The notes: a model not told the origin generated them from the sequence alone. A stretch of 32,000 bases of DNA from Erysipelotrichaceae bacterium MTC7 (GCA_001695645.1 LVZN01000002.1:1-32000); one strand, 5' to 3'; numbered from the stretch's first letter, positions 9,686 through 28,392 are shown. Numbers and translations: made by a program.

Positions 9686-9688
9686 GCA

Positions 9689-9711: not shown

Positions 9712-9714
9712 TCA

Positions 9715-10050: not shown

Positions 10051-10079
10051 ATTATAACTCCGTAAGAGGGGGCAAACAA
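10051..10079 (-). promoter_or_regulatory. Candidate promoter for the membrane-protein/relaxase genes
   Basis: Minus strand: TTGTTT (10074-10079), 17 nt, TATAAT (10051-10056). Palindrome R4 lies about 22 nt upstream of the -35. Confidence 0.4.
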
Positions 10080-10100
10080 GGATGGCTCCGGCTGCCCCCA

Positions 10101-10123
10101 CCTCTGGACAAAGCGTCCAGAAG
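10101..10123 (+). repeat. ICE palindrome copy R4 (one arm mismatch)
   Basis: CCTCTGGACAAAGCGTCCAGAAG. It follows a separate hairpin CCGGGGAGCG-CAA-CGCTCCCCGG at 10133-10155 downstream of mobC. Confidence 0.85.
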
Positions 10124-10161
10124 CCGGGGCAGCCGGGGAGCGCAACGCTCCCCGGCAAGGG

Positions 10162-11485: not shown

Positions 11486-11487
11486 CA

Positions 11488-11510
11488 CCTCTGGACAAAG
11501 TGTCCAGAAG
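11488..11510 (+). repeat. ICE palindrome copy R5
   Basis: CCTCTGGACAAAGTGTCCAGAAG, 2 nt upstream of the ATG at 11485. Confidence 0.9.
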
Positions 11511-11639
11511 CAGCGGGGATAGATGTGGAAAGCATTTTGACAAAGCGGGGGCGGGACATAGAAACATACGGCCCGCCCCAAAACCGGCCCCGGAAAGCCT
11601 TGTGATCAGCGGGTTTTCCGGGGCCTAATTTTCCACACA

Positions 11640-12895: not shown

Positions 12896-13147
12896 TCAGT
12901 TTTCCTCCTTTTCCGCAGGCCCCGACTTCTGGACACTTTGTCCAGAGGTGCCCTCCCGGAGCTGCTGAAGCACCAGGGGCAGCTCCTCCAAAGAAATGCT
13001 CAGGCCCCGCACGATGTCCACGATCTCGCTGTTTTCGGCCTCCAGCTTATTTTTCTCCAGCTCCTTGAGCCGGGCCTGCTGCTCGTTGATTTTGGCCTTG
13101 ACCTTTTCGATCTCAGCCTGGATTTTTTGGCTTTTGCTTGCCGCCAT
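12896..13147 (-). CDS. DUF4315-like coiled-coil protein
   Basis: MAASKSQKIQAEIEKVKAKINEQQARLKELEKNK.... ATG at 13147 after GGAGGT. The C-terminal tail contains palindrome R6 in frame (TSGQSVQKS). Confidence 0.72.
   Translation of the reverse strand: MAASKSQKIQAEIEKVKAKINEQQARLKELEKNKLEAENSEIVDIVRGLSISLEELPLVLQQLREGTSGQSVQKSGPAEKEEN
12926..12948 (-). repeat. ICE palindrome copy R6 (in frame in a CDS tail)
   Basis: CTTCTGGACACTTTGTCCAGAGG, translated on the minus strand as TSGQSVQKS. Confidence 0.9.
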
Positions 13148-13159
13148 AGATACCTCCAA

Positions 13160-14815
13160 TCATGGTAAACGCCCGTAGGCGTAGAAATGGGACTGCCAGT
13201 AATTTGTGTTCAAATTCGCGTAGCTGATGGGATCGCCACAATGGATCATCATCCCGTCCCCCACATAGATGCCACAATGGGAAACGCCGGTTGTATCATA
13301 GGTGCCCTCGAAAAAGACCAGATCGCCGGGGCGGGGTGCGCCGGTGGGGGTGCAGATGTTGTAAAGCCCCTGGGCCCCCAGGCGGCCCACATCCCAGCCG
13401 GAGTGATTGATCACCCAGGACACGAAGCCGGAGCAGTCAAAGGAAGTGGCCGGGGAACTGCCGCCCCACACATAGGGATAGCCCAGGTATTTTTCCGCCT
13501 CGCCCAAAATGGCCGCAAAGGTTTCATCGTCCAGATATTCCTCCGGCACATCGTAGTCGGCGGGCGGTTTCGTGTATTTGTCCACATACCCGGACTCCGG
13601 GAACAGGTCGGGCCGGTTGCCCAGGCAGGACATATAGAGGGCATACCGGGCCAGCTCCTCCTCGCCCATAAGCTCCAGGGGAAGGTGGGAAAGGGTTTTG
13701 TTTTCCAGCGTCACATAGCAGATATACCAGGAATAGGGATCGCCCTCGCTGTCGTACCGGGTTTCCCGCACCACACGCTCCGTCAGAATATACTGGCGGT
13801 CAAAAAGCATTTGCAAAGTGCCCTGCACCTGGGCAAGCGTCCATTCCCCCTCGTGGAGCACAGAGAGGATGGAGATGAGCACATAGGGATCGTGCTCAAT
13901 GGTGTCCAGGTCAAAGTGGTACTCGTCATAATCGTGGGTGCTTTCGTAGGTGTCCAGGTAGTTTTGCAGCTCCGCCTCCATATCTGCATAGGCGGCCTCG
14001 GCCCCCAAAATATCCTCGTCCTTTGAGGGGTAAGTGGTAGCGCCCACGGCACCCGCGCCGGAGTTACCCAGCATCACCAGGGAGGACGAACAGGACTGCA
14101 TGATAAAGAGCAGGAGCAGACAGGCCAGGGCCAGGAGCACCCCCACGGGATGCCGCTTGATAAAGCCTACCGCCTGGGCCCCGGCCTTTTCCGTGGCGGC
14201 GGCGGTCTTTTTCGCCGCCTTTGCCGCCCCAGCCCTGGCGGTCTGCCGCGCCTGCTTGCGGTATTGCCGTTTCTGCCAAAACTGTTTCCAGGCATTTTGC
14301 CTCAGCTCCGGGTTCTCCTGGGCGGCCACGCGGAAATGATGATCCGCCGTAGCCTTGATATATTTGGACTCCGCCCGCTGGACAGCCTTTGCCGGGTGTT
14401 CCCGGATTTTCTTCTTAACGAACCGGGAGCCATGCCGCAGGGCGGTTTCACCCGCCAGCTCGGAGCGGTGGGCCCCCTCGGTGCCCACGTTCTCCTGCTC
14501 CACCTCAAAGAGCTTTCCATGCACAAAGCCGTGGACGGCGCCGCCGGCGGCCCGGCCCACCCGCCTCACCGGGCCGGGCTTTTTGGGCGGCTTTTGTTTG
14601 GACAGCTTATCCTTTGCCTGTTCCAGCTTCTCCCCGCGCTTTTCCATGCGGAGCTTTGACGAGGCGGCCTGTTCCTGGTTGCTTTTCTGCCGGAACTTTG
14701 ACTTCTGGACATTTTGTCCAGAGGTAGCCTCCGTCCTGGCCCCGTCAGGGGAGCCCTCCGGCGCGTCCTGCCGGGGAGCCGCCTCCGGGCTGGGTTTATT
14801 CGGTTTTCGCTTCAT
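13160..14815 (-). CDS. NlpC/P60 cell-wall hydrolase of the conjugation apparatus
   Basis: 551 aa. TM segment GVLLALACLLLLFIM. C-terminal NlpC/P60 domain with FDCSGFVSWV catalytic Cys and SHCGIYVGDGMMIH. Palindrome R7 is in frame near the N-terminus. Confidence 0.88.
   Translation of the reverse strand: MKRKPNKPSPEAAPRQDAPEGSPDGARTEATSGQNVQKSKFRQKSNQEQAASSKLRMEKRGEKLEQAKDKLSKQKPPKKPGPVRRVGRAAGGAVHGFVHGKLFEVEQENVGTEGAHRSELAGETALRHGSRFVKKKIREHPAKAVQRAESKYIKATADHHFRVAAQENPELRQNAWKQFWQKRQYRKQARQTARAGAAKAAKKTAAATEKAGAQAVGFIKRHPVGVLLALACLLLLFIMQSCSSSLVMLGNSGAGAVGATTYPSKDEDILGAEAAYADMEAELQNYLDTYESTHDYDEYHFDLDTIEHDPYVLISILSVLHEGEWTLAQVQGTLQMLFDRQYILTERVVRETRYDSEGDPYSWYICYVTLENKTLSHLPLELMGEEELARYALYMSCLGNRPDLFPESGYVDKYTKPPADYDVPEEYLDDETFAAILGEAEKYLGYPYVWGGSSPATSFDCSGFVSWVINHSGWDVGRLGAQGLYNICTPTGAPRPGDLVFFEGTYDTTGVSHCGIYVGDGMMIHCGDPISYANLNTNYWQSHFYAYGRLP
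14702..14724 (-). repeat. ICE palindrome copy R7 (in frame in a CDS, centre variant)
   Basis: CTTCTGGACATTTTGTCCAGAGG, translated as TSGQNVQKS. Confidence 0.88.
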
Positions 14816-17204
14816 TCTTCAAATCCTCCGGGCGGGTGGTGAGCAGGTTATATATCTCCCCCTTGGGGAAACGGTCAACAAAGGGGATGGTCACATCCCC
14901 ATAGAACAGCAGGCCCTCGCCGGAATTAGAGTGGGTGATGTAGGAAAGCTGGTGCTCGGAAATGCCGAGCTGCTTTGCCAAAATCGCCCGGTCACTTTGG
15001 GCCTGGGCCAGCAGGATCATAAAATCGGTGTTGTCCAGAATGGCCTCGATCTCCCGGCTGGCCAATAAGTCTTTGACGTTCTGCGTTAAAGCCGAGGGGA
15101 CGCAGCCCTTTTTGCGAAGCATCTTCCACACGGCTACAAAGTAGCTGGCGGTGAGGGCGTCCCGGAGCAAAATATGAAACTCGTCAAAGTAGCACCAGGT
15201 AGAAATACCGCTGTGGAAATTCACGTTGACCGCCGAAGTTACAAAATCATTGGTGATGTGCATGGCGATCTTCCGCAGGTTTTCTCCCAGCCCTTTCAGC
15301 ACGATACACACCACGCGGGCGGTCAAGTCCACGTTTGTCAAATGGTTGAACAGGTTGAGGGAGCCGGTGCAGTAGAGCTCCAGGGCGGTCGCTACCCGCC
15401 GGGCCTCCGGCTCCGGCTGTTTCAGAAGTTCCTCGTACAAGTCCTGGAGCAAGGGCGGCTTGCCGTCCCCGATCCCCAGGGCCATATCCCGGTAGATGAG
15501 CCGTACACAGCGGTCGATCACCGTCTTTTCGATAGGCTGCAAACCATCCTTACCGCCCACCACCAGCTCGCACAGGGACAACAAAAAATCCGCTTTCATG
15601 GAAAGCGGGCTCTCGTCCTCGTCCATATCCAGCCGGATGTCCATAGGGTTGATATGGCTGGGGGAGCCGGGGGCGATCTCAATGACCTGCCCGCCCAGCC
15701 GCCGCACCAGCGGGGCATATTCGCCCATAGGGTCTACGATCAGAATCCTGTCCTGGGGGATGGTGAGGAACACGTTTAGAAGCTCCCGTTTTGCTGCAAA
15801 GGATTTCCCTGATCCGGTGGAGCCGAGGTACAGGCCGTTGGCGGATTTCAGCTTTTTTCGGTCAGCCATGATGACATTGTGGGAAAGGGCGTTCATCCCG
15901 TAATAGAGGGAGGGCCCCGCCATCCGCAGCTCCCGCGTCATAAAGGGAATGAAGATGGCCGTGGAGCTGGTTGTCATGCCCCGCTGGATTTCCACCTCGT
16001 TATAGCCCAGGGCCAGGGAGGACACGAAGCCCTGCTCCTGCTGCCAGTCCAGCCGCTTCAAGGCGCAGTTATATTTCTGTGCGATGCCGCCCACTGTAAA
16101 AATATCGTTTTCCAACCGTTGGCGGGTGGGGGCGATATTGATCACCGTGAACGTCAAGAGGAACATCCGCTCGTTGCGGGATTGCAGATCGGCCAGCAGC
16201 TCCGCTGCGTCTTTGGAAAAGGTAATGAGATCGGGTGGCAGGATGTCGGGATCATATCCGGCCCGCACCGCCTTGCGCTGTTCCTCCACTTTCATTTTTC
16301 CAATGTCGGACAGCTTGCCTTTTACCGTTTTAATAGCCTTGAGCTGATCCACCGTCTGAATGTGCATAGTCACAGTCAGCTCTGCGTCCAGTTCCAGGAT
16401 CTCCGCCAGGAGCTTGTCAGAGAGCTCCGAAGCCATGATCTGCAAATAGGAGGCCGCGCCCCAATACTGGCCCACCCGGAACAGGCGGGACTGCCTAAAG
16501 TCGAAGCTGTCCGGGGCGATATAGTCCTTTGTCCCCATCCCTGTTTTGGGAATATCCTGCCAGGAGAAGCGGAACGGCTCCCGGTTCCCAGGGTGCATCT
16601 GGCTGTGAAGCAGGGCCAGCCGCGCCCGCCCGTCCAGGGGCTCCGAGGGCACCCCCAGCCGTTTGAGGTTGCCTGTCACATCGGCCTCCACGCGCTCCAG
16701 CCGGGGCCGGGCCTCCCCGATCCCCTCGGCGGGGAGCCCAAAGGTGATATATTTGGAACGCTCGATCCCGTTGTTCGACCGGGCGATCTGATTTTTCAGC
16801 ATCCCCGTGAACTCGCCCCGGACACTGTTGAAGCTGTCCTCCGCCTGGGGGATATTCACCCGGTATTTGTTCCGGGAGCGGGAGCGGCGGTTGATAAAGG
16901 AGAGCTGGAACGGCAAAGAGGTATCAAAGTAATTGAGGAATGAGCTCCAGCCGCCAAAGATGGCCGTCTGATCCTCGGTGCTTGCCACGGAATAATTGAT
17001 GTCCTCATACTCCACCGTTTTTGTGTAAAGCCCGCCGGGGAGCTGACATACCCCGTCCGGGTGCATCACCAGATAAGGGATCGTCTGCTGGGCGGACAAA
17101 ACAGCTTTCCGGTCAGCGGCCTTTCCGGAGCCGCGCTTTTGATTTTCTGCTTTTTGCAATCGCATCCTCCTTTCCCACAGCGCCCCGATGGGTGAACGGG
17201 GCAT
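14796..17204 (-). CDS. VirB4-like conjugal transfer ATPase (CD1110/TcpF/Orf16 type)
   Basis: 802 aa. Walker A GSTGSGKS and Walker B-like ILIVDPMGE. The start may instead be the ATG at 17165 or the TTG at 17159, next to AAGGAGG. Confidence 0.93.
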   Translation of the reverse strand: MPRSPIGALWERRMRLQKAENQKRGSGKAADRKAVLSAQQTIPYLVMHPDGVCQLPGGLYTKTVEYEDINYSVASTEDQTAIFGGWSSFLNYFDTSLPFQLSFINRRSRSRNKYRVNIPQAEDSFNSVRGEFTGMLKNQIARSNNGIERSKYITFGLPAEGIGEARPRLERVEADVTGNLKRLGVPSEPLDGRARLALLHSQMHPGNREPFRFSWQDIPKTGMGTKDYIAPDSFDFRQSRLFRVGQYWGAASYLQIMASELSDKLLAEILELDAELTVTMHIQTVDQLKAIKTVKGKLSDIGKMKVEEQRKAVRAGYDPDILPPDLITFSKDAAELLADLQSRNERMFLLTFTVINIAPTRQRLENDIFTVGGIAQKYNCALKRLDWQQEQGFVSSLALGYNEVEIQRGMTTSSTAIFIPFMTRELRMAGPSLYYGMNALSHNVIMADRKKLKSANGLYLGSTGSGKSFAAKRELLNVFLTIPQDRILIVDPMGEYAPLVRRLGGQVIEIAPGSPSHINPMDIRLDMDEDESPLSMKADFLLSLCELVVGGKDGLQPIEKTVIDRCVRLIYRDMALGIGDGKPPLLQDLYEELLKQPEPEARRVATALELYCTGSLNLFNHLTNVDLTARVVCIVLKGLGENLRKIAMHITNDFVTSAVNVNFHSGISTWCYFDEFHILLRDALTASYFVAVWKMLRKKGCVPSALTQNVKDLLASREIEAILDNTDFMILLAQAQSDRAILAKQLGISEHQLSYITHSNSGEGLLFYGDVTIPFVDRFPKGEIYNLLTTRPEDLKNEAKTE

Positions 17205-17517
17205 AGATGTTTTCTGTTCGGTAGGGCCTCACCCCAGGCCGCAGGAAACGGGCCCGGATGATGTTTCGCACCACCTTTTCAAGCGGGAGCCCGTCTTTCT
17301 CATACATCGCCAGCAAAAAGGCCGGGAGCGCCACCGCCATCATAAGAAACATGGCCCCGGTGTTGCCGATAGAGCTCCGGGCCAGCAGGTAGGACGGGAC
17401 GCCCACCGCCGCCGCGATGCCGAAGCACACAAGCTGGCGTTTCGTCAGATTAAAGGCAAGTTTGGTTTTGACCTTTGATAGATCGTTGGGAACATTCACA
17501 TAGGGAATTTTGATCAC
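17113..17517 (-). CDS. PrgI/TcpE-like small membrane protein
   Basis: PYVNVPNDLSKVKTKLAFNLTKRQLVCFG plus two TM segments, in the usual position immediately upstream of VirB4. Start codon uncertain: GTG abuts the SD, and ATT lies 8 nt after AGGAG. Confidence 0.7.
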   Translation of the reverse strand: MIKIPYVNVPNDLSKVKTKLAFNLTKRQLVCFGIAAAVGVPSYLLARSSIGNTGAMFLMMAVALPAFLLAMYEKDGLPLEKVVRNIIRARFLRPGVRPYRTENIYAPFTHRGAVGKEDAIAKSRKSKARLRKGR

Positions 17518-17535
17518 TCCTTTCCGGCCCGGCTA

Positions 17536-17558
17536 CCTCTGGACAAAGTGTCCAGAAG
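17536..17558 (+). repeat. ICE palindrome copy R8
   Basis: CCTCTGGACAAAGTGTCCAGAAG, 11 nt after the C5-methyltransferase stop. Confidence 0.9.
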
Positions 17559-17569
17559 TACGGGTAATT

Positions 17570-18631
17570 TTAACGCAGGGCCTCCGCGATCCCAGCCATG
17601 ATATACTCCGCGCAGGGCAGGGCGATGGCGTTGCCCAGGGCCCTGTACCGCTGGGACGCGCTGATCTCCCCGCCGTCGGCCCCGTACTTCGTCCACCCCT
17701 CCGGCAAGCCCATGAGCCGCTCACATTCCAGCTCCGTGGGAAAACGAATACAGCCGCCCGCCGGATCGTCCTCGTACCAAAAGGCAAACGGTGTCACAGT
17801 ACCGGCTAACAGAGTGGGAAAAGGGTCTGCTGGAAATCCGAAGCTGTTTTGGAACGCTGTTTGTTCCCCCTCCTTGGCAGCCCCCCGCATACGGAACCCT
17901 TGAAAGGGTCTTGTGATGGGTACGCGCCCCCCTGTTTCAAGAACAGGGCCTCGATCTCCGCCGGGGGCGGGCAGCCCGCCCGCTGTGCAAGGCGCAGGAA
18001 GTGGGAGCATTGGGCGGGGCTTAAACAATATTTCGGGAGCACGCCGCCCTCCAAAGTCTGCCACAAGAAAGACGCGCTGGCGTCGGGCCAGCCGGGGCCT
18101 TGCCCAGTGCTGGGCATCCAAGAGCCGCCATGCGAGATCGGGGCATCCCCCTCGCACCATTCCGGCGCTTGCCCATCTTCCCGAAGCAGGCATTGGAATT
18201 TCGGTGTCTGTGAAAGCGGATAGGACGGCTCTAAAGTCCATCCGGTCATTTGAAGAAAACGCTCCCATGACGTTTTCCCAAATAGAGATAACTGGATATA
18301 GATCATTGGTGGCCTTTCTCATTTCTTGAATGATACGGATCGCGTGAAAGAACAGGCCGGATTTAGCCCCGGCAAGGCCGGTGCGATTACCGATCTGCGA
18401 GAGGTTTTGACAGGGGGAGCCAAAGGTCAGCACATGGACGGGCGGGATGGCCCCGCCGTCCAGTTTGGTGATGTCCCCCAGGTGGGCCATATCCGGGAAA
18501 TGCCGCTGGGTGATGGAGATCGGGGCGGCCTCGATCTCACTTGCCCACAGGGGACGGATGCCGCACCGCGACGCCGCCAGAGGGAAAACGCCGATGCCGT
18601 CAAACAGGCTCCCCAAAGTGAGCCCATTCAC
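17570..18631 (-). CDS. DNA (cytosine-5) methyltransferase
   Basis: Motif I LFDGIG, motif IV GSPCQ and motif VI ENV. The proposed GTG start at 18629-18631 follows AAAGGAGG and overlaps the upstream TGA. The ORF-track start at 18709 reads through palindrome R9. Confidence 0.88.
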   Translation of the reverse strand: MNGLTLGSLFDGIGVFPLAASRCGIRPLWASEIEAAPISITQRHFPDMAHLGDITKLDGGAIPPVHVLTFGSPCQNLSQIGNRTGLAGAKSGLFFHAIRIIQEMRKATNDLYPVISIWENVMGAFSSNDRMDFRAVLSAFTDTEIPMPASGRWASAGMVRGGCPDLAWRLLDAQHWARPRLARRQRVFLVADFGGRRAPEILFKPRPMLPLPAPCTAGGLPAPGGDRGPVLETGGRVPITRPFQGFRMRGAAKEGEQTAFQNSFGFPADPFPTLLAGTVTPFAFWYEDDPAGGCIRFPTELECERLMGLPEGWTKYGADGGEISASQRYRALGNAIALPCAEYIMAGIAEALR

Positions 18632-19212
18632 AAGACCTCCTTTTGGCCCGCTGCTTCTGGACACTTTGTCCAGAAGTCCGGGATCGTGGGCTCCACCTCG
18701 TTGCCCCATACATCCCAGCCGGGCGGGGACTGCCTGGCGAACAGCTCCACCCTGGGCAGGTCGCCCATGAGAGCCACGATCTTTTCACGGGCCTCCTCCG
18801 GTTTGCGGCTGTGTTCCCGGATAGGGGAAATGATAAACTGATGGACATTCGCCGCTTGCCGTTTGGGGTGTCCCCGTGTCGCCAGCAGGCAGACCTCCGC
18901 GTTGCCCCGCGTCCAAAAGCCCAGGCCGTAAAACCAGCCGGGGGACTTGCGGTTTTGTTTGAGCCAGACAAAAGCCACAGATTTATAGGTGAAGCCCCAC
19001 GCCTGGATCAGCCGCAGGGCCTCCGGGAGCTGCGGGAACGTGGCCCACAGAAAAAGCGCGCTGTCCTTGGCCGCAAGGTCGGCCACAGGCAACGCGCATA
19101 GTTCCGATATGCTCATGGTGGGGTAATGGTTTTCCGCCGCCCCCTGTATCTTTTTTGCTGTGTAGCGCCAGGGTGGATCGGCATAAATGATAGAATAGCG
19201 TCCGATAGTCAA
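18628..19212 (-). CDS. MT-A70-family N6-adenine DNA methyltransferase
   Basis: IIYADPPWRY (DPPW motif). TTG start overlaps the upstream TGA. The C-terminal tail carries palindrome R9 in frame (FWTKCPEA). Confidence 0.85.
   Translation of the reverse strand: MTIGRYSIIYADPPWRYTAKKIQGAAENHYPTMSISELCALPVADLAAKDSALFLWATFPQLPEALRLIQAWGFTYKSVAFVWLKQNRKSPGWFYGLGFWTRGNAEVCLLATRGHPKRQAANVHQFIISPIREHSRKPEEAREKIVALMGDLPRVELFARQSPPGWDVWGNEVEPTIPDFWTKCPEAAGQKEVL
18654..18676 (-). repeat. ICE palindrome copy R9 (in frame in a CDS tail)
   Basis: CTTCTGGACACTTTGTCCAGAAG, with symmetric CTT/AAG arms. Confidence 0.9.
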
Positions 19213-20000
19213 ACTCCTTTCTCCCCGGACTCTACCGCCGAACGCGCCACACGGATGCGCTCACTGGCGGCAGCGTAGTAGGCCGGGACGGTTTCAAAAC
19301 AAATAAAGCGGCGGCCCGTGTTGAGGGCGGCCACCGCCGTTGTGCCGGAGCCCGCGCAGATGTCCGCCACCACCTCGCCGGGCCGGGTGTAGGTTTTAAT
19401 AAAATACTCGCACAGTTCCACGGGCTTTTGGGTGGGGTGGATGGTGCGCTGCACCGTGGGGAATGTGAGCACATTCCCCGGAAAACGAAGCCCGTCCTCC
19501 GAGCCCCCGGATGAGCGGACAAACTTTCCATAGTTCGGGCTGTCCCCGTTGTTTTTCACATTCCGCTTGTAAGGCTTGCCCTGTTCAAACTGCGGATTGT
19601 AAAGGGGAAGTTTCTGATAGAACACCAGGATATTCTCCGTCTTTTTCAGCGGGGCCCGCCTTGCGTTGAGAAAACCTGTGCAGCGGCTCTTGTACCACAC
19701 CCACTCATAGCGGAGCATAGGGAGGTTGGAGGCCCCCAGCACCTTATCATAGGGGCACTGAGCGAAGAACAGCACCGCCCCCTCCGGCTTGACAGCCCAT
19801 TTCACCGCCTCCCACAGCTCCGGGAGGGACAGCGGCACATCCCAAAAGTTCCGGGTAGTGCCGTAGGGCGGATCGGTCAGCAGCATATCCACCGAATGAC
19901 GGGGCAGCGCCCGCAGCCCCGCGATGCCGTCTTGCAGGAACAGGCCCTCCTGGGACTTCTGGACACTTTGTCCAGAGGTATCGAATATCGTTTTTTCCAT
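19209..20000 (-). CDS. N4/N6 DNA methyltransferase (N6_N4_Mtase family)
   Basis: LLTDPPYG motif, and HPTQKPVELCEYFIKTYTRPGEVVADICAGSGTT. ATG at 20000 after GGGAGGTG. Palindrome R10 is in frame at residues 8-16 (TSGQSVQKS). Confidence 0.88.
   Translation of the reverse strand: MEKTIFDTSGQSVQKSQEGLFLQDGIAGLRALPRHSVDMLLTDPPYGTTRNFWDVPLSLPELWEAVKWAVKPEGAVLFFAQCPYDKVLGASNLPMLRYEWVWYKSRCTGFLNARRAPLKKTENILVFYQKLPLYNPQFEQGKPYKRNVKNNGDSPNYGKFVRSSGGSEDGLRFPGNVLTFPTVQRTIHPTQKPVELCEYFIKTYTRPGEVVADICAGSGTTAVAALNTGRRFICFETVPAYYAAASERIRVARSAVESGEKGV
19956..19978 (-). repeat. ICE palindrome copy R10 (in frame in a CDS N-terminus)
   Basis: CTTCTGGACACTTTGTCCAGAGG. Confidence 0.9.
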
Positions 20001-20014
20001 TGAAGCACCTCCCG

Positions 20015-20881
20015 TCAATGCGCCCCGAAGATGCGCTGGGCGATGCCGCCCGTCTTAAACAGCATAAAGCAGAGTAAAACCGTGTAGCCCACAATGCCCC
20101 AAATGGCCCCAATGGGGTCGCCGCTGGTGGCGATCCCCTGGACAAGCACCGCGTAAATGGCAACGCACACCAGAATGAGCATCCCTTGAAAGCCGACAGC
20201 GAACAGGGAGCGCAGATAATTCTGGCCCGTTTGCCCCACCTCCCGATGGGCCAGGGTAGCCATAGGGATAGGGGCCAAGCTGGTCAGCAAATAGATTTCC
20301 AGCATCCTGCCATAGACCAACACAAAAATGACAATGCCCAGCGCCCACATGGTCACACCGATAATGGAGGACTGGAGCCACAGGCCGAGAAGCGGCCCCA
20401 AGTCCATGCCCTCCAGGGTGGTTTCCAGCTCCGCCAGCATATCCGGCGTGATGTCCGTGGAGCCCTGGATGAGCCCGCCCGCCTGGGCGATCACGGACTG
20501 CGACACATCGAACACCGCCATCACGATATGAAAGGTGTTGGACAGAATGAGAATGGCACAAGCCGTCTTGAACATCCATTTATAGATATTCGCCACATCA
20601 AACTCGTGCATATTGTTTTTTTCCAAAAGCATCTGAATCAGCTCATAGGTGGCAACAAAGGTCAGCACCATCCCGGCGATGGGTAAGATCACCGTTTCGG
20701 AAAGCTGGCGTATAAGGGAGAAAACCCCGGCGTTCCACGCCGCCGGGGTAGTCCCCACTTGTACCGCGATCTCCCCGACCTGGGCGTTGACGTAATCGGT
20801 GAGCCCCTCCAGGTTTCCCATGATCCCGCCAATCAGCAGCTCTTTGAGCCAGTCCGTGAGCCAGTCGGTGAGAAAATCCAT
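20015..20881 (-). CDS. VirB6/TrbL-like polytopic membrane protein (CD1112 type)
   Basis: 288 aa with multiple TM segments, positioned between Maff2 and the VirB4 block. Confidence 0.78.
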   Translation of the reverse strand: MDFLTDWLTDWLKELLIGGIMGNLEGLTDYVNAQVGEIAVQVGTTPAAWNAGVFSLIRQLSETVILPIAGMVLTFVATYELIQMLLEKNNMHEFDVANIYKWMFKTACAILILSNTFHIVMAVFDVSQSVIAQAGGLIQGSTDITPDMLAELETTLEGMDLGPLLGLWLQSSIIGVTMWALGIVIFVLVYGRMLEIYLLTSLAPIPMATLAHREVGQTGQNYLRSLFAVGFQGMLILVCVAIYAVLVQGIATSGDPIGAIWGIVGYTVLLCFMLFKTGGIAQRIFGAH

Positions 20882-20890
20882 AATCCCTCC

Positions 20891-21103
20891 TTAGAACAAA
20901 CCAGACAGCAGGGGGATCAGCGTGGTGCCCAAAAGGATAATGCCGCCTCCGGCCATGAGCTGCTTCATGCCCTGGCTTTTGGAGCCAGGATTATCCGATC
21001 CGTAGCCCTCCAGCAAATTCACCACGCCCCACACGCCAAGACCAGCGCCGAGGGCAACAACGAGGGTCTGCAAAGTATCGATCGCGGAAGAAAAAAACTG
21101 CAT
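20891..21103 (-). CDS. Maff2-family small membrane protein
   Basis: 70 aa with two hydrophobic helices around the GSDNPGSKSQGMKQL loop. Confidence 0.68.
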   Translation of the reverse strand: MQFFSSAIDTLQTLVVALGAGLGVWGVVNLLEGYGSDNPGSKSQGMKQLMAGGGIILLGTTLIPLLSGLF

Positions 21104-21240
21104 AGAGCCTCCATTTCTCCGGGGATATTCCCGGCCTCGTCACCGCAAACTTCATATCATTCCTTTCCGCGCAAGCGCGAAAAGTCATTCATTCCGTTGC
21201 GGTTCCTCTTCCCACAAAATCTTTGATTTTGCGGGAACCC

Positions 21241-21268
21241 TAATAAATAAGCCGCCATCTCTGGCGGC
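21241..21268 (-). terminator. Rho-independent terminator-like hairpin after traG/virD4
   Basis: The minus strand reads GCCGCC-AGAGAT-GGCGGC then TTATTTATT. Confidence 0.45.
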
Positions 21269-21277
21269 AGGTTACGA

Positions 21278-21300
21278 CCTCTGGACACTTTGTCCAGAAG
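21278..21300 (-). repeat. ICE palindrome copy R11
   Basis: CCTCTGGACACTTTGTCCAGAAG, 6 nt after the VirD4 stop. Confidence 0.9.
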
Positions 21301-21306
21301 TAGGAT

Positions 21307-23160
21307 TTATACATAGGCATCCGGGTCATCCACATCGTCATAGTTGAGGATGTCCTCGTCCTCGCCTATGGGCCCTGTGTCTGTCCCGTCTGCCTCGTAC
21401 ACCTCACAAGCCTCGTTCAGCCCAGGCCGCCTGCGGCGGTTGATGAGCTTATCAAGGGAAAAGGCGTTTTTCACTTGATCGGCCTCAGCCGTATATTTGT
21501 AGTTCGGGTGCTGCTTCAAATCGTACTTTGGGGAATAGAACGGGGGCAGGCCCCGGAGCTGCAAAATGCACCTGTCGCCGGGCATGGTAGCAAGCTCGGC
21601 GGGGGTCATCAGCTCCCGGCCAAGTCGCTGGGTGTTGAGGTTGTAGCTTTCCGACTGGCCTTTGGAGCGCCCGTCCGTCTGCATATAGATCGTGGACTTC
21701 CCCAGCCAGTTTTCCGAAATCTCCTTAATGGTGGAACTTTCCCTGCCGCCCAGGAAAACAACGCTGTCCATATTTCCCATGATCGTTTCCGCGTGTTTGT
21801 CATAAATGGCCTTGCACTGTGCCATCTGTTGGTAAAAGAGCGTCAGCGATATTTCACGGGAGCGGATAACGGCCACCAGCTTTTCCAGATTGGGCACCTG
21901 CCCTGTATTGGCCGCCTCGTCCCACAGCACCCGCACATGATGGGGCAGGCGGCCCCCGTGAACATTGTCCGCCCTCTCGCACAGCAGATTGAACATCTGC
22001 GAAAAGGCCAGAGCTACAAGAAAGTTGTAGGTTGGCGTGGTATCGGAAATGGTGAAGAAAACCGCCGTTTTCCGATCCCCGATGCGGTCAAGGGCCAGCT
22101 CGTCATAGCTCATGATCTCCCGGAGCTGGGGGATGTCAAAGGGGGCCAGCCGGGAGCCGCAGGAGATCAAAATGCTTTTGGCCGTCTTGCCGCTGGCTAA
22201 TTTGTATTTTTTGTACTGCTTCACCGCAAAGCAATCCGGTTTGCGCTTTTCCAGCCCCTTGAACATATAATCCACCGCGTTCATAAAGTTTTCGTTGTCC
22301 TCTTTGACCTCCATGCCGGAGATCATATCCACCAGGGTATTCATATTCCGATCCTCGGCGGGGCCCTCGAAAATGATATAGGCGATGAGGGCGCAATACA
22401 AAAGCGTTTCCGCCTTCGTCCAAAATGGGTCGCCCTCTTTGCCCTCGCCTTTGGTATTGGCTATGAGGGTATCGACAAACTTTAGGATGTCGGCCTCGCT
22501 GCGGATATACGACAGAGGGTTATAGTGCATACTTTGGGAAAAATCAATGGAATTGAACACCTTGATCCGATAGCCCCGCCGTTGCAGGAAAGCCCCCACC
22601 TGGGAGAGCACCCCGCCTTTTGGATCGACCACCACAAAGCTGCACCCGCCCTTTTTCTTTGCGCTGGCCTGGAGAAGCTGCGGGGTGAGCCAAAACCGTG
22701 TTTTGCCGGAGCCGGACGAACCGATCACACAGGCGTTAAGATTGCGGGCGTTGGCCGGGTTTTGGGGGCGAGTGTTCATGGTGAGAAGCTCCGTCCCGGT
22801 GAGAATGACATTGTTTTCAAAGACAGGATCGACGAAAGGGGCTATATCTTTCGGACAGCCCCAGCGGGCTGATCCGTACTCCTCATCCCGCCGAAATTTT
22901 TTGGCGTTCTTGCTTTTTACATAGATCAGCAGCCGGAAGCCCACCGCGCCCACAATGCCGATGAGCCAGTCAAAGGGATCAAGCCCCGGCGCGAGATCGG
23001 CAAAGGCCGGGCCTACCGTCTGCCCCAGGCCCATGAGCTTATGGGGTAAATCCGCGCCGGCGGCCAGCCGGTAGGCCGTCCCCAGCTTCAAGCAGGCCCA
23101 CAGCACAAACAAATAGGGGATGTTTGGTATCACATATTTTTTTACGCTATCTGTCCTCAT
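21307..23160 (-). CDS. VirD4/TraG-type type IV coupling protein (CD1115 type)
   Basis: 617 aa. N-terminal TM segments, Walker A GSSGSGKT and Walker B-like RVLWDEAAN. Confidence 0.93.
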   Translation of the reverse strand: MRTDSVKKYVIPNIPYLFVLWACLKLGTAYRLAAGADLPHKLMGLGQTVGPAFADLAPGLDPFDWLIGIVGAVGFRLLIYVKSKNAKKFRRDEEYGSARWGCPKDIAPFVDPVFENNVILTGTELLTMNTRPQNPANARNLNACVIGSSGSGKTRFWLTPQLLQASAKKKGGCSFVVVDPKGGVLSQVGAFLQRRGYRIKVFNSIDFSQSMHYNPLSYIRSEADILKFVDTLIANTKGEGKEGDPFWTKAETLLYCALIAYIIFEGPAEDRNMNTLVDMISGMEVKEDNENFMNAVDYMFKGLEKRKPDCFAVKQYKKYKLASGKTAKSILISCGSRLAPFDIPQLREIMSYDELALDRIGDRKTAVFFTISDTTPTYNFLVALAFSQMFNLLCERADNVHGGRLPHHVRVLWDEAANTGQVPNLEKLVAVIRSREISLTLFYQQMAQCKAIYDKHAETIMGNMDSVVFLGGRESSTIKEISENWLGKSTIYMQTDGRSKGQSESYNLNTQRLGRELMTPAELATMPGDRCILQLRGLPPFYSPKYDLKQHPNYKYTAEADQVKNAFSLDKLINRRRRPGLNEACEVYEADGTDTGPIGEDEDILNYDDVDDPDAYV

Positions 23161-23653
23161 GCACCGCCTCCTTTGTGCGTTCCAGCTTTTGGGCGGGCTG
23201 GCGGGCCGCTTCTGCGGCGGCCTCCTTGATCTGCTCCCGGATGGGGGCCTTTGCGGATTTGGTGCGCTTTAGCAGCCGTTTGGAATATTCGGAGAAACAG
23301 GCTGTGATCGCGTCGGCCTGCCCCGCCTTGAAGAACAGTAAGTGTTTATCCGGCGCGACTTGATAAAAAGCATAGTCCACATTCCATTTCCGGGCCACCC
23401 GGTCAAAGAGGGCCGGGGCCTCCACCTCGATACTGTTGGTGGCGGCCCCGTGGCCCATGAGCTGCCCCACCGTCTGCCTGCCGTGGGGCGTCTGTTTTGC
23501 CCGGTGGTGTTTGGCGATCTTCCGGGCAATCGCTCCCAGCACACAGGCAAGCCCCCGCGCCGTGAGCTTGCTTGCCTTGATAGATACCGCTATGGTTCGC
23601 CTGGAAATATCTTCATCTACCAGCCAAATCCCTCCTTCCCATGAAAAAAGCAC
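23147..23653 (-). CDS. PcfB/DUF3801-like protein
   Basis: The sequence and its position directly upstream of the coupling protein fit PcfB. The ORF-track GTG start lies in the flank of palindrome R12. GGAAGGAGGG is followed at good spacing only by CTG (23621-23623), so the start is uncertain. Confidence 0.68.
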   Translation of the reverse strand: MLFSWEGGIWLVDEDISRRTIAVSIKASKLTARGLACVLGAIARKIAKHHRAKQTPHGRQTVGQLMGHGAATNSIEVEAPALFDRVARKWNVDYAFYQVAPDKHLLFFKAGQADAITACFSEYSKRLLKRTKSAKAPIREQIKEAAAEAARQPAQKLERTKEAVHEDR

Positions 23654-23675
23654 CTCTGGACAAAGTGTCCAGGAG
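23653..23675 (+). repeat. ICE palindrome copy R12 (one arm mismatch)
   Basis: CCTCTGGACAAAGTGTCCAGGAG, 5 nt after the ardA stop. Confidence 0.87.
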
Positions 23676-23680
23676 TGCCG

Positions 23681-24390
23681 CTATCGGTCTGAATGGCCTT
23701 GCTCCGGGTTGGGGCGCTCCGCCGCCTGGGGGAAACGGCCAATGACTTCTTTGTAAGCCGCCATCTGCTCCCGGATGGAGAGCCGCGGGTAAGCAAAAAC
23801 CTTGTGTTCGGCGGGAATGTCCTCCCGCCCGTGGTAGTATTCAATAAACTGGCTGCCATTGGGGAGGAAAAAACCACCTTTGACAAAGCTGCCATCCTCA
23901 TTGATCCGCATATCCCGGCCATACGCCTCATAATCGAAATAATCCCGCAGGTTTTCGGGAATGTCGATCATCTCCATGTCCTCCGCGTAAATACGGCCCA
24001 GGGTTTCATCATCGGACACGCCGATATAGAAATCGTAGCAATCCAGGTTTTCCGCAAGGTTGATAAGGTCGCCCGCGCCGGAGGTGTGCTCGCCGCTGGC
24101 GACAGCCGCCTCAAACTTCTCCAAATCGCTTTTGTCCAGCTCGGAGAGCAGGCAGGCCAGATGGTTGAGCTCGTCAATGCTTTCGTATTCCCCAGGCAGG
24201 CATTGAGTTCCGGCAGGTCGCCGCCATAGTCGGCAATAAAAATCTCCTCATAGCGGATATTGTCAATGCCGATTTGTTTTAGGACTTCCTGTACCTCCTC
24301 CCTGGTGGTGGGGAATTTCAGAAGTGAGCTTGCCAGTTCGCCCTCGTTGTATTTCCCAAGATTGGTGACATACGCCTCGATCACCGCCAT
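23681..24390 (-). pseudogene. ardA: ArdA antirestriction gene with a -1 frameshift in a homopolymer run
   Basis: The N-terminal part MAVIEAYVTNLGKYNEGEL...DLPELNACLG is in one frame (start 24390). The C-terminal part ...EKFEAAVASGEHT...DCYDFYIGVSDDE...DYFDYEAYGRD is in another. Adding one G to the GGGG run (plus-strand CCCC, 24190-24193) restores LGEYESIDELNHLACLLSELDKSDLEKFEAAV. Confidence 0.85.
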
Positions 24391-24391
24391 A

Positions 24392-24733
24392 TCAGCGTCG
24401 CCTCTGGCCCTTGACAGTGAGGATGCCGTCCAGGGTGGTGGCGGTGATCCCAAGCCGCTGGGCCACCGCGATGTCATTTTTCACCGCTTCATCGACATGG
24501 CTCCCGCATACTACCAGCACACGGGAGCGCCGGAGCAGGTCGCGCCCCATGTCAATACCGCTTTTATGCTCCTCCGGCACCGCGTCATTGAGGAACAGCG
24601 GCAGATAGAGCATCGGGCAGATGGGGGAATACCCCGCATCGTAGACAATACGGCAATATTTAGCCGCCTGCTCCATAACCTCGCACTCGCCGCCGCGCCA
24701 TGCGGCGGTCACATACGCAAGGGGTCGTTTCAT
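24392..24733 (-). CDS. DUF4406-like / nucleoside deoxyribosyltransferase-like ICE protein (function tentative)
   Basis: 113 aa. SPICPMLYLPLFLND...RVLVVCG pattern. ATG after GGAGGTTTGGATT. Confidence 0.55.
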   Translation of the reverse strand: MKRPLAYVTAAWRGGECEVMEQAAKYCRIVYDAGYSPICPMLYLPLFLNDAVPEEHKSGIDMGRDLLRRSRVLVVCGSHVDEAVKNDIAVAQRLGITATTLDGILTVKGQRRR

Positions 24734-25001
24734 AATCCAAACCTCCGTTTCTTTTCCTTATATATAGGTAGGGTCAACCCTATCCCCCGCCCTTTCCCTA
24801 TCCAGGGAAAGGGGGCGGCTCTGGAGGATATACCCCCGCCGCTCGCCGGGAATAGCACAGCCGGGGCAGACCGTAAAGGGCAAGCCGCCGCAAAAGCGGC
24901 GGGCGTTCCGCCCCTTGACGGCCCACTCCCGGCTGTGCGGCGTCAAACCCGGCGACGGGGGATATATCACCGCAGAGCCCATCCCAAGCGCGGAGCGCAT
25001 A

Positions 25002-25024
25002 CCTCTGGACAAAGTGTCCAGAAG
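25002..25024 (+). repeat. ICE palindrome copy R13
   Basis: CCTCTGGACAAAGTGTCCAGAAG, 11 nt after the ParB-like stop. Confidence 0.9.
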
Positions 25025-25035
25025 CAGGGGGCCGG

Positions 25036-26502
25036 TCACTTGTCGAGCTCGTTCTTCTTCTCCGGCTTTGCCAGTTCGGGCGGCTGCTTCTCTTTCCACT
25101 CGTCCAGCAGGGCCATGATCTGTTCTTTCATTTTGGCAGGAGTGATTTCCTTGCCGAAATACTTGTTGAGTTCGTCGGTACTGATGATCACGTTGTCAAC
25201 CTCCCTTTTTTCTTCGCTTAAAATGCCGTCGATCACATCTCCGTTGAGCAGGCCCTCCTGGTCGAGCTCCCGGAGCCGCTTTGCCTGTTTGACCGAGGGG
25301 GAGGACTGCTCCCCATCAATAGACACGGCGATGAGCCGCTGGTTTTCCGGCTTGATATACGACAGCTCCACGGCGGGCATAAAGCCCATATTTTTTGTGT
25401 CTACCTTTTCCAGAAGCTCCGGCACAAGATGGTTGAGCCGGACATAACGGAGCACCTTTTTATAGTTCATATCATGCTCCTTGCCCACGATCTCCACCGA
25501 GAGCTTACCCAGGGCCTCCGCCTCCTGGTCATTTTTGGGCCGGGCCCCCTGGCGCTTGATGGCCTCCAGCTCCAAATCCAGGAGTTTTGCCAATTCGCTG
25601 GGGAGAGGGTCGCCCCGCTGCTTGTTGCTGTTCTTCATTTCCCGGACAGCCTCAAGGTCGGTCATCTCACGGACAATACAGGGGATCTCGTCCAGGCCAG
25701 CCCGCTCACCGCCATGACAGCGGCGATGTCCCGCGATGATCTCATAGCCCTTGCCGTCCTTTTCCGGGCGGACGGTGGCCGGGGTCATAATGCCGTGTTC
25801 CCTGATCGTCCCCACCAGATCGTCCATCGCCTTATCGTCCTGCACCTTGAATGGGTGATCCCGTAAAGTATGGAATGGGTGAAGCTCCGACAGCTTCAAA
25901 TAGACGATTTTGCCCTGTTCCACCGGGCGGGGAGGCACCTCCGGCGTGGGCGGCAGCTTGATCTCCGGGGTAGGGGCCTCTGCCTCCTTGACCGGGGCGG
26001 GCTTGCCCTTTGGGACTTTCACACCGGGCCCAACACCCCCGGAACCTGTTTCCTTGTCCTTTTTTCCACCTCTGGACACTTTGTCCAGAACACCGGGGGC
26101 CGGGGACTTGCCAAGGGCCGCCTTGTCAGCCTTGGCCGGGCGGCCCTTGCGGGGCTCCGGCCCCTTTTCCGCTTTGCCGCCCTGGGGGTGATCCTGTTCC
26201 TTTGGGGGACGGCCCCGGCGCTTTGCCGTTTTTTCCTCCGGCTCCACTTTTTTATCCTGGTTGAGGGATTTCCCCGTCTTTTCAGCCTCGACCTGCGGCG
26301 CAGGCTGGGCTGGAGCGTCCTTGCCCATACCGGGGATCACAGACTGCTCCGGCTGGGGTGCCGGGCCGGTGCCAGCAGCGGGCCCCTCTACCTCTTCCGG
26401 GACAGGGGGCTTTGTTACAGCCTGGGCGTCCCCAGCAGGGCCCCCGCCAGGGTGATCCAGGACAGGGGACTCCGGGCCTGTTTTCAGTTTGTCATCTGCC
26501 AT
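25036..26502 (-). CDS. ParB/Srx-like N-terminal-domain protein with a long low-complexity N-terminus
   Basis: 488 aa. About 190 aa are rich in P, K, G, E and A. Then comes the ParB N-domain (IVYLKLSELHPF...GYEIIAGHRRCHG, GxxR motif). ATG after AAGGAGG. Palindrome R14 is in frame (VLDKVSRGG). Confidence 0.88.
   Translation of the reverse strand: MADDKLKTGPESPVLDHPGGGPAGDAQAVTKPPVPEEVEGPAAGTGPAPQPEQSVIPGMGKDAPAQPAPQVEAEKTGKSLNQDKKVEPEEKTAKRRGRPPKEQDHPQGGKAEKGPEPRKGRPAKADKAALGKSPAPGVLDKVSRGGKKDKETGSGGVGPGVKVPKGKPAPVKEAEAPTPEIKLPPTPEVPPRPVEQGKIVYLKLSELHPFHTLRDHPFKVQDDKAMDDLVGTIREHGIMTPATVRPEKDGKGYEIIAGHRRCHGGERAGLDEIPCIVREMTDLEAVREMKNSNKQRGDPLPSELAKLLDLELEAIKRQGARPKNDQEAEALGKLSVEIVGKEHDMNYKKVLRYVRLNHLVPELLEKVDTKNMGFMPAVELSYIKPENQRLIAVSIDGEQSSPSVKQAKRLRELDQEGLLNGDVIDGILSEEKREVDNVIISTDELNKYFGKEITPAKMKEQIMALLDEWKEKQPPELAKPEKKNELDK
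26069..26091 (-). repeat. ICE palindrome copy R14 (in frame in the ParB-like CDS)
   Basis: CCTCTGGACACTTTGTCCAGAAC. Confidence 0.88.
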
Positions 26503-26690: not shown

Positions 26691-27680
26691 AGTAGTAACA
26701 AGTATAAAACGATAACTATCAAGGAAATCTTTCGTGGTCCGGATACTCAGAAATATGCTTTTGAATTGTCAGATGGCTATTGCATTGAAACGGTAAGCAT
26801 TAAAAGAAAAACTGGTACTACTGTATGCGTGAGCACCATGATAGGTTGCCCTGTTGGGTGCATCTTTTGCGCCTCTGGTGAAAATGGATTTGTCAGAAAT
26901 CTAACACCATCTGAAATAGTTCAACAAGTAATACTGATAAATGGTAGAGTAAATAGGATTGTATTCATGGGCATGGGAGAACCTCTGTTCAATTATGATA
27001 ACGTGATAAAGTCCATTCATATATTAAGAGACCGCAAAGGACTTGATTTTCCAACAGATGGTATAACAATATCAACAACGGGACCGCTCCCTCAGATGAA
27101 GAAGTTGAGAGAAGAACATTTAAAAATCCAACTTACGTTATCCCTGCATGCCACGAATCAGCATGTAAGGGACTATATCATGCCGCATATGAAAGGGTAT
27201 GATATAAATGAAGTAGTTCAATCAGTACTCTCATATTCAGAAAGACATAATCGTAGCGTTACTATAGCATATTTGCTTATACCGGGTGTAAATGATCGTG
27301 CGAATGATGTAAAACAGTTGGGAAGATGGTTTCGTGACAAAAATGTATTGATTAATCTTTTACAATACAATGAAACGGATTGTAAAGCAGTTCGAAGACC
27401 AAACAAACAGGAACTCGTTGCATTTCGTGATAAGTTAAATAAGGTGGGACTTACTGTGAAAATCAGAGAATCCCGAGGTGGCAATATAAAAGCCGCATGT
27501 GGTCAATTGGTAAGTAGATTAAATAACCGCAATATGAGTGCACCCAAGAAAAAAGGAGCTTCGGAATTGGATACAGGTTCGTCGAACAATGCTGGATCTT
27601 CGAGTAGATTGAAGCCAAGTAAGAGACGTTATGTAAACAATAAAAGCAAGAATGGAAAAAAGGGTTCATCGCATAAATAA
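26691..27680 (+). pseudogene. RlmN/Cfr-family radical-SAM methyltransferase lacking its N-terminal domain
   Basis: KYAFELSDGYCIETV, VCVSTMIGCPVGCIFCASG (CX3CX2C), FMGMGEP and NIKAACGQL. The frame is open only from 26691, and the ORF-track TTG is at 26766. About 60-80 N-terminal residues found in full-length family members are absent. It also has a Lys/Ser-rich C-terminal tail. Confidence 0.7.
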
Positions 27681-28182: not shown

Positions 28183-28392
28183 CTATTCCTCTGTTCGTTC
28201 AATCTCCACGATGTCATCAAGCTCACAGTCGAGTGCTTTGCAGATGCGAAGCAGTACATCCGTAGTGACATTCTCATCCTTGCCGAGTTTCGCAAGAGAA
28301 GATGAACTGATGCCCGCCGCTTTTCGCAAATCCGTCTTCTTCATATCTTTGTCAATCAGTAGCTTCCACAGTTTCTTATAACTCATCTTCAT
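28183..28392 (-). CDS. Small HTH (XRE/HTH_26-like) protein, last gene of the ABC-3C-like operon
   Basis: MKMSYKKLWKLLIDKDMKKTDLRKAAGISSSSLAKLGKDENVTTDVLLRICKALDCELDDIVE. ATG at 28390-28392 lies 9 nt after AAGAGG and overlaps the ATPase 3' end by 17 nt. Confidence 0.8.
   Translation of the reverse strand: MKMSYKKLWKLLIDKDMKKTDLRKAAGISSSSLAKLGKDENVTTDVLLRICKALDCELDDIVEIERTEE

Follow-up and report, generated by a model that had tools for sequence, protein, structure and literature searches.

Within the window, a stretch of 32,000 nucleotides from Erysipelotrichaceae bacterium MTC7 (GCA_001695645.1, LVZN01000002.1:1-32000), an integrative and conjugative element (ICE) carries 16 copies of a short palindrome, all of them in the ICE backbone (about 1400-26100). 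We favour, with moderate confidence, the view that these palindromes are duplex DNA sites of the parS, OB and bisS kind, putatively bound by the ICE's own ParB-family protein (25036-26502), a proposal built on comparative sequence analysis. Pfam and NCBIfam scans of the long open reading frames (ORFs) identified the element as a Tn1549/CTn4-like ICE of Firmicutes, ~25.6 kb in size, with all of its genes on the minus strand. Its extent was set at roughly 1150-26720, because the ParB gene is the first ICE gene in related genomes, where it adjoins chromosomal genes.

The window was searched with TCTGGACANNTTGTCCAGA, allowing up to 3 mismatches, and the chance level was taken from shuffles. The search found 15 copies of TCTGGACA-NNN-TGTCCAGA vs 0.02 expected, and a 16th, variant copy lies at 3943-3967 (Table 1). 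The conserved unit was the 25-mer aCY-TCTGGACA-NNN-TGTCCAGA-RGt, in which two 11-bp half-sites (ACY-TCTGGACA in the window element) flank a 3-bp centre. The flanks beyond the 25-mer were unconserved and showed no target duplications. The original prediction, which had been made from the sequence of this stretch alone, had proposed a symmetric unit of 27 nt (nine codons); this was not found as a general feature, and conservation ended at 25 bp. The same window search gave no palindrome in the cargo region (4000-8100) or in the ICE flanks. Nearly all cistron boundaries had a site, in many cases 9-27 nt past a stop codon and 5-16 nt ahead of the following Shine-Dalgarno (SD) sequence. No prior description of these palindromes was found in a search of open-access papers.

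To compare lineages, we used eighty loci fetched with VirB4, plus IMG/VR and metagenome loci. A Subdoligranulum contig with 78% identity carried another palindrome, TYGGGACA-NNN-TGTCYCRA, at the matching places. The half-sites were assigned to type A (TCTGGACA), type B (TYGRGACA), type C (TCTGG(T/C)CA, with the centre CGG) and type D (CCY-NTGGGACA), and locus L074 had a further variant beyond these. Elements were almost pure for one type, for example in 18 of 18 half-sites, which suggests that a type-specific factor acts in trans. The site type followed the element and not the host, since the same type occurred across many genera. In one IMG/VR contig (L083), a type C and a type A module, each with sigma-like, xis-like and serine-recombinase genes, lay head to head, which shows that elements of two types can adjoin in one genome.

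The slots that hold the sites were common to all lineages. They comprised the ParB N-terminus and the position past the ParB stop codon, the ArdA/DUF3801 and T4CP (VirD4-type coupling protein)/TrbL_2 junctions, the N6_N4 methylase N-terminus, the MT-A70 tail, the NlpC/P60 N-terminus, the DUF4315 tail, the Cys_rich_VLP/DarA_C and NikA/relaxase junctions, the position past the relaxase gene, and the positions upstream of the sigma-like and xis-like genes. An exception among the five coding slots was the ParB-internal one, which type C ParB lacked. In the coding slots, the encoded peptide changed in step with the palindrome version. The DUF4315 and NlpC/P60 proteins read TSGQSVQKS in type A elements, TLGQSVPKS (DUF4315) or TSGQSVPKS (NlpC/P60) in type B and ASGHGGQK in type C; MT-A70 read DFWTKCPE in type A, DFGTKCPE in type B, GFWSRWPE in type C and GLWDTLSH in type D; and ParB read LDKVSR in type A and RDKVSR in type B. 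The start of the N6_N4 methylase gene always lay 4-8 codons upstream of its site. All orthologs of DUF4315, NlpC/P60, MT-A70 and N6_N4 methylase carried the palindrome at the same place, and DUF4315 cluster representatives at <=50% identity kept an SG[QH]..[QP]K tail. Taken together, the shared slots, the version-matched peptides and the lack of any ortholog without the segment show that the DNA sequence is the selected unit and that the sites are ancient fixtures, not insertions.

An element resembling an integrative mobilizable element (IME) also carried the sites. It bore complete type A and type B 25-mers in tandem (L098, 676-729; L119, 518-571; also L114), ~90 nt upstream of an operon that encodes Cys_rich_VLP, RepA_N, a Mob_Pre relaxase, an xis-like protein and a serine recombinase. 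The tandem sites on an IME suggest that type-specific factors are supplied in trans by the ICEs.

The ParB assignment of the putative reader is based on matches to Pfam ParB_N (1.3e-17) and to NCBIfam TIGR00180 (69.7 bits vs a cutoff of 58.45). Its N-terminal domain has relatives in the PDB, namely Spo0J (1vz0, 4e-15), Noc (7ng0, 3e-11), KorB (8qa8, E=1.7e-5) and ParB, and in the PDB alignments its GHRR aligns with GERR and its SNKQR with ENLQR, at the nucleotide-binding motifs GxxR and ENxxR. The protein was present in 21 of the 21 related loci with enough upstream sequence, and sites lie within its gene and just past its stop codon. An alignment column was called discriminating if it separated type A from type B elements. 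ParB had 10-17 such columns, including R317H, L334R and K341E/A in a helix-turn-helix (HTH)-like segment, IK[R/H]QG...LGK[L/R]SVEIVG[K/E], and type C ParB sequences from metagenomes and D-like elements supplied third and fourth states. Residues 317/334/341 were R/L/K with the half-site ACY-TCTGGACA, H/R/(E or A) with ACT-TYGRGACA, H/R/K with CCY-TTGGGACA and H/L/Q with TCTGG(T/C)CA. Residue 334 thus varied with base 3 of the half-site, Leu going with T (types A and C) and Arg with G (types B and D and locus L074). Judged from ParB backbone identities, this switch occurred at least two independent times: the ParB of a type B locus (L038) is 90% identical to a type A ParB, and L074, whose half-site has G at this base, has a ParB most similar to that of type C. 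Chemically, a contact of Arg with guanine or of Leu with thymine at residue 334 would be plausible.

The first ~200 residues of the window ParB are disordered, of low complexity and rich in Pro, Lys and Glu. They hold two AT-hook-like motifs, KRRGRPPK and PRKGRPAK, which are kept in relatives despite large variation in length.

If ParB reads these sites, a dimer would bind each of them with one 11-bp half-site on each side of the 3-bp centre, and this binding may depend on CTP. In a compact, co-directional element, the gaps between genes and the unconstrained tails and linkers of proteins would be the only places where a fixed 25-bp sequence can survive, and for this reason five or six copies would come to be translated. 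Binding at ~16 sites would load or position ParB across the whole 25 kb, and, in the manner of KorB and BisD, such loading could coordinate either the silencing or activation of transfer genes or how the excised circle is handled. The site versions of the ICE lineages would match their ParB allele, and the L334R change would shift the preference of ParB from TCTGGACA to TCGGGACA sites. Mobilizable elements with tandem sites of two lineages would respond to either helper ICE.

Several results weigh against this proposal. As for the protein, no Pfam family matched ParB residues 300-488, and the profile alignments stopped before that region; the HTH-like segment ...LGK[L334]SVEIVGK... was recognized by motif resemblance (LGKxS...V.RY.RL) and predicted helices only. 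An AlphaFold model of residues 199-488 had a mean pLDDT (per-residue model confidence) of 46, too poor to place residue 334, and was not used. The covariation with site type has only two independent switches behind it, and phylogeny confounds the rest. No ParA/Soj-like protein was found among the ICE ORFs scanned with Pfam, which argues that the element does not have a classical partition (ParABS) system. As for the sites, on the coding strand the half-site TCGAGACA formed the 5' half in every case (31 vs 0 in all loci), and the type A flank ACT...GGT was found in intergenic slots and its reverse in coding slots. This orientation bias fits neither a symmetric dimer on duplex DNA nor a hairpin. 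The near-universal placement at gene junctions, often shortly before an SD sequence, hints at a link to gene expression; the junctions may simply be where so compact an element can tolerate a fixed 25-mer, or the sites may take part in gene expression.

The match between element and site type also had irregularities that count against ParB as the reader. The ParB-internal site did not match the resident type, and hybrid or foreign-type sites occurred there. Some metagenome loci (L167, L130, L178 and others) were mosaics, with type B blocks beside type C blocks, and these contigs could be natural recombinants or assembly chimeras. The window element, otherwise type A, keeps a type B site upstream of its sigma-like gene, whose product shares 79% identity with its type B counterparts, which suggests that the regulatory module beside the cargo is recombined. 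Two further ideas were rejected. The ParB N-terminal peptide was unreliable as a barcode of site type because of those hybrid and foreign-type sites, and a fixed orientation of type C sites was ruled out by a reversed copy past the type C ParB gene.

We consider it unlikely that the palindromes are operators of another ICE-encoded DNA-binding factor, such as the Orf7-like sigma-70 region-4 protein, the small xis-like protein or an uncharacterised backbone protein (DUF3801 or DUF7768). Sites lie upstream of the sigma-like and xis-like/recombinase genes in all lineages, the IME operon with tandem sites encodes recombination functions, and DUF7768, ArdA and DUF3801 also show A/B-discriminating columns. 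However, DUF7768, DUF3801 and ArdA had no known DNA-binding fold in the Pfam and NCBIfam scans. The sigma-like protein was rejected as the binder since its phylogeny is discordant with site type: the window protein has the identity to its type B counterparts given above, its identity to the type A ones is 33-83%, and only 2 weak discriminating columns were left. Sigma region 4 reads the -35 box as a monomer, which does not fit a palindrome of 25 bp, and promoter-like motifs did not co-localise with the sites. No discriminating column was found in NikA/MobC, the relaxase, Cys_rich_VLP, MT-A70, orf7614 or orf7963, and NikA, the relaxase, Cys_rich_VLP and MT-A70 were excluded as the other factor. 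The relaxase and NikA were also rejected as specificity factors, and the window relaxase is closer to type B relaxases.

It is rather improbable that the palindromes act as single-stranded nucleic acid hairpins in place of ParB-bound duplex sites. In mRNA they would be intercistronic elements for processing, stabilisation or translational insulation, read by an ICE-encoded RNA-binding protein or nuclease; in single-stranded DNA they would be priming or protein-loading hairpins of the transferred strand in the recipient. A perfect site makes an 11-bp stem with a 3-nt loop and folds at -15 kcal/mol (z about -5), the sites have the junction placement described above, the genes are co-oriented, hence one strand is special, and the sites show an orientation bias relative to it. 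All arm mismatches were transitions. However, the association between the two halves of a site at variable positions was negative (odds ratios 0.07, p=0.007, and 0.33, p=0.002), whereas compensation would make it positive. This argues against hairpin pairing as the selected property, and it is expected if each site tolerates about one deviation from the consensus half-site. No element had a private compensated variant, though an element selected for structure only would allow one, and all the sites of an element share one sequence, which points to a sequence-specific reader and not to structure alone. The strand on which mismatches become G.U wobbles varied between slots and positions, so that a wobble consistently on the mRNA strand was ruled out. 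Conserved slots (ArdA/DUF3801 and upstream of the sigma-like gene) folded weakly in the mRNA sense (-3.7 kcal/mol, z=-0.46), and the loop was CUU in some slots and AAG in others. An Rfam scan of the window gave no match at any site, and most sites lacked a T-run past the stem, only 2 being called terminator-like. The distance between site and SD sequence varied, which excluded a fixed SD spacing. Promoter-adjacent operators or terminators were likewise rejected, as neither promoter-like nor terminator-like motifs generally co-localised with the sites.

The original prediction had described five copies of the palindrome that are read in frame by genes, and the window translations agreed with it for all five, in which all three frames are used. 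The DUF4315 tail ends in GTSGQSVQKSGPAEKEEN just before its stop codon, the NlpC/P60 N-terminal region reads EATSGQNVQKSKF, and the MT-A70 tail reads DFWTKCPEAAGQKEVL up to its stop codon, which overlaps the GTG start of the C5-methylase gene. The palindrome-encoded residues 8-16 of the N6_N4 methylase follow an ATG with a good SD sequence, and in the disordered N-terminus of ParB the palindrome reads GVLDKVSRGG. Two copies had been missed, the type-B-like one at 3943-3967 and a sixth, degenerate coding copy in the serine recombinase gene (LLDTLSG), which is also kept in related recombinase genes. The palindrome had been called stop-free in all six frames. This is true for the type found in the window, and it is uninformative since 31% of random 25-mer and 40% of random 19-mer palindromes of the same design are equally stop-free; in the lineage variants C and D, 1-2 frames contain stops. 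The count of AAG or AAA on the coding strand (5 of 5 coding vs 2 of 9 intergenic copies) was right (Fisher p=0.021), and the bias held across lineages when more elements were tested. The AAG orientation may be retained because the peptides are hydrophilic, with Gln-Ser or Lys, vs His-Phe or Leu from CTT. As had been noted, many ORFs have spurious N-terminal extensions (the relaxase, DarA_C, orf2725, orf7963 and orf24758 ORFs), because the palindrome has no stops.

The view that real proteins read through a nucleic-acid unit also held, in that the DNA and not the peptide is conserved. The same prediction had likened the palindrome to the Rickettsia palindromic elements (RPEs), to which it is similar in being palindromic DNA read through in frame by real proteins. 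RPEs are 100-150 bp long, lie genome-wide in unrelated genes and show presence or absence among orthologs, whereas the window sites are 25 bp long, occupy fixed orthologous slots in the ICE backbone only and show no insertion polymorphism. Aligning orthologs had been suggested as a way to reveal 8-9 extra residues at the coding sites; no ortholog lacked the segment, the DUF4315 representatives included, and in all lineages examined, the ParB-internal slot in type C apart, each coding position was an orthologous slot that bore the palindrome version of its lineage. It is thus very improbable that the palindrome is a miniature element, mobile or insertional, which entered genes (in frame) and intergenic regions time and again: it is stop-free in every frame, is translated in three frames and lies in coding copies always within terminal or low-complexity protein segments, but it has neither presence/absence polymorphism nor conserved flanks or target duplications, occurs only in the ICE backbone and in related ICEs and IMEs instead of being dispersed genome-wide in unrelated genes, is kept in distant DUF4315 proteins, and owes its open frames to a property expected in 31-40% of such palindromes.

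For ParB-bound duplex sites, the closest known systems are KorB/OB and BisD/bisS. KorB, a member of the ParB family, comes from the IncP plasmid RK2/RP4, over which 12 OB palindromes are spread; OB is 13 bp long and is classed by promoter distance, and KorB works with IncC (a ParA) and KorA. In both cases a ParB-family protein of a conjugative element is the reader, here a predicted one, of a short palindrome in a dozen or more element-wide copies. Unlike OB, the window site is 25 bp long and belongs to a Gram-positive ICE rather than a plasmid, no ParA gene was found, and the sites lie at gene junctions and inside coding tails, whereas OB sites are classed by their distance from promoters. 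BisD of ICEclc in Pseudomonas binds bisS, an 11-bp inverted repeat with a 1-nt centre (23 bp) inside genes, spreads ~50 kb over ICEclc along the transcription direction and activates transfer-competence promoters (PMC12409273). The window system shares with it an ICE-encoded ParB-like protein, 11-bp arms, a short centre and sites inside genes (PMC12409273). ICEclc has only two bisS sites vs ~16 here, and the two ICE families are unrelated. Neither the extra activator domain of BisD nor its partner BisC was identified in the window element, and the lineage-specific site variants and parasitic tandem sites seen here are not described for bisS. Further contrasts with both KorB and BisD are the fixed gene-junction slots, the five or six translated copies, the lineage-specific versions of site and protein, and the long disordered, AT-hook-like N-terminus of the window ParB.

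ParB-parS and Noc-NBS (Noc-binding site) also resemble the window system in their homologous N-terminal domain and in their palindromic sites, often inside genes. In ParB and Noc, specificity is set by a few residues. Their sites are 16 or 14 bp long, their roles are chromosome segregation and nucleoid occlusion, and the DNA-binding segment of the window ParB could not be aligned to them by sequence. With regard to the mobilizable element, SGI1-type islands exploit the AcaCD boxes of their IncC helper together with a parABS hijack (PMC10954446). As in SGI1, a small integrative mobilizable element bears the cis sites of its helper, here as tandem type A and type B 25-mers; unlike SGI1, two adjacent sites of the IME would address two helper lineages.

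A broader picture can be offered tentatively, at somewhat less than an even chance. An ICE family of gut Firmicutes, which here carries the linezolid/phenicol resistance gene cfr, would be under the control of a ParB-like DNA clamp; the 25-bp sites at which this clamp loads, specific to each lineage, would stand at nearly all gene boundaries of a 25-kb element that is co-directional and possibly transcribed as a ring, and would fix 7-9 residues in five or six proteins; IMEs with tandem sites would eavesdrop on either helper; and a single Leu/Arg switch in ParB would re-address the element. Tn1549/CTn4-like ICEs (VirB4 of the "CD1110 family") span many genera of gut Clostridia and Erysipelotrichia and carry resistance cargo; the site network, if true, would give a concrete regulatory handle on them. 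It would also provide a way to type elements and to predict the helper of each mobilizable element, and it would be a natural case of DNA-binding specificity that evolves in concert at 10-16 sites per element. For annotation, the palindromes call for caution, since short peptides in unrelated proteins are dictated by a constraint at the DNA level, which also inflates the predicted ORFs. Pfam models are affected as well; for example, the DUF4315 profile covers the tail with its palindrome-encoded residues.

Table 1. Palindromic sites, genes and other features of the window (positions counted from its first nucleotide; match start, first position of the match to TCTGGACANNTTGTCCAGA).
Feature	Position	Strand	Match start	Context
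Degenerate site (TCTGGACACTTTGTCCGGG on the minus strand, 2-3 mismatches)	1405-1429		1408	Inside serine recombinase coding sequence, peptide LLDTLSG, CTT on coding strand
Type A site	2981-3005		2984	~80 nt upstream of small xis-like gene preceding serine recombinase; slot kept in L023 and IMG/VR loci
Type-B-like site (TTGGGACA GCT TGTCCCAA)	3943-3967			~80 nt upstream of sigma-70 region-4 gene; slot kept in all lineages
Type A site	8162-8186		8165	27 nt past relaxase stop codon
Type A site	9688-9712		9691	Upstream of relaxase gene; then terminator-like hairpin 9685-9658
Type A site, one arm TCTGGACG	10100-10124		10103	After NikA/MobC gene; extra flanking inverted repeats
Type A site	11487-11511		11490	12 nt upstream of DarA_C gene SD
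Type A site	12925-12949		12928	In DUF4315 C-terminal tail (TSGQSVQKS), 12-18 nt upstream of CD1107-like gene SD
Type A site, centre TTT/AAA	14701-14725		14704	In NlpC/P60 N-terminal low-complexity region (TSGQNVQKS)
Type A site	17535-17559		17538	Between C5-methylase stop codon and PrgI SD
Type A site	18653-18677		18656	In MT-A70 C-terminal tail (FWTKCPE), just upstream of C5-methylase SD and GTG start
Type A site	19955-19979		19958	Codes residues 8-16 of N6_N4 methylase (TSGQSVQKS)
Type A site	21277-21301		21280	9 nt past T4CP stop codon; then terminator-like hairpin 21268-21251
Type A site, one arm CCTGGACA	23652-23676		23655	Between ArdA and DUF3801
Type A site	25001-25025		25004	14 nt past ParB stop codon; slot kept in types A, B, C, D
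Type A site	26068-26092		26071	In disordered ParB N-terminal region (VLDKVSRGG)
Large serine recombinase	1159-2640	-
Small xis-like protein	ATG near 2901	-
Sigma-70 region-4 protein	3442-3864	-
Cfr-family 23S rRNA (A2503-C8) methyltransferase, cargo	4257-5507	-		NCBIfam NF000424, 585.8 bits vs 530-bit cutoff
MarR	5530-6123			Beside cfr-like gene
Insertion sequence with rve integrase	6202-7452	+		Beside cfr-like gene
ArdA	23681-24477	-		Two overlapping ORFs, 23968-24477 and 23681-24124
ParB-family protein, 488 residues	25036-26502	-		Pfam ParB_N, NCBIfam TIGR00180, PDB relatives
Disordered ParB N-terminal region	25900-26502	-		First ~200 residues
RlmN-like gene, 5'-truncated	26727-27680	+		Starts right at ParB end of ICE
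DUF2326 and ABC-3C CTD11 genes	28376-31402	-		Outside ICE

Along the direction of transcription, the ICE genes encode the ParB-family protein, DUF7768, ArdA, DUF3801, the VirD4-type coupling protein, TrbL_2, the N6_N4, MT-A70 and C5 methylases, PrgI, VirB4 ("CD1110 family"), NlpC/P60, DUF4315, a CD1107-like protein, Cys_rich_VLP, DarA_C, NikA/MobC, a small membrane protein and the MobA/VirD2 relaxase. The cargo follows, with the insertion sequence (IS), MarR and the Cfr-family rRNA methylase, and then the sigma-70 region-4 protein, the small xis-like protein and the large serine recombinase. In the region 10060-10160, the site after the NikA/MobC gene is nested in a longer inverted repeat (GGCTGCCCC...GGGGCAGCC), which is followed by a promoter-like TTGTTT-17-TATAAT motif. 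The extended inverted repeats have a geometry reminiscent of the R1162 origin of transfer (oriT), and this region is probably oriT together with the promoter of the relaxase operon.

The ArdA gene is split, whereas relatives have a single gene of ~236 codons; the split is a frameshift or a sequencing error. The cargo makes this ICE a carrier of a multidrug resistance determinant of the PhLOPSA type (phenicols, lincosamides, oxazolidinones, pleuromutilins and streptogramin A), and its Cfr-family protein has an unusual C-terminal Cys_rich_KTR domain. Beyond the ParB end of the ICE, the homology of the truncated RlmN-like gene begins at RlmN profile position ~80-89, which suggests that the ICE, itself bearing the RlmN paralog cfr, may have inserted into rlmN. 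An rlmN N-terminal fragment at the left ICE end (975-1178, plus strand) was not confirmed, as Pfam gave no match there. Outside the ICE, the genes with DUF2326 and ABC-3C CTD11 domains probably form an ABC-three-component defence system.

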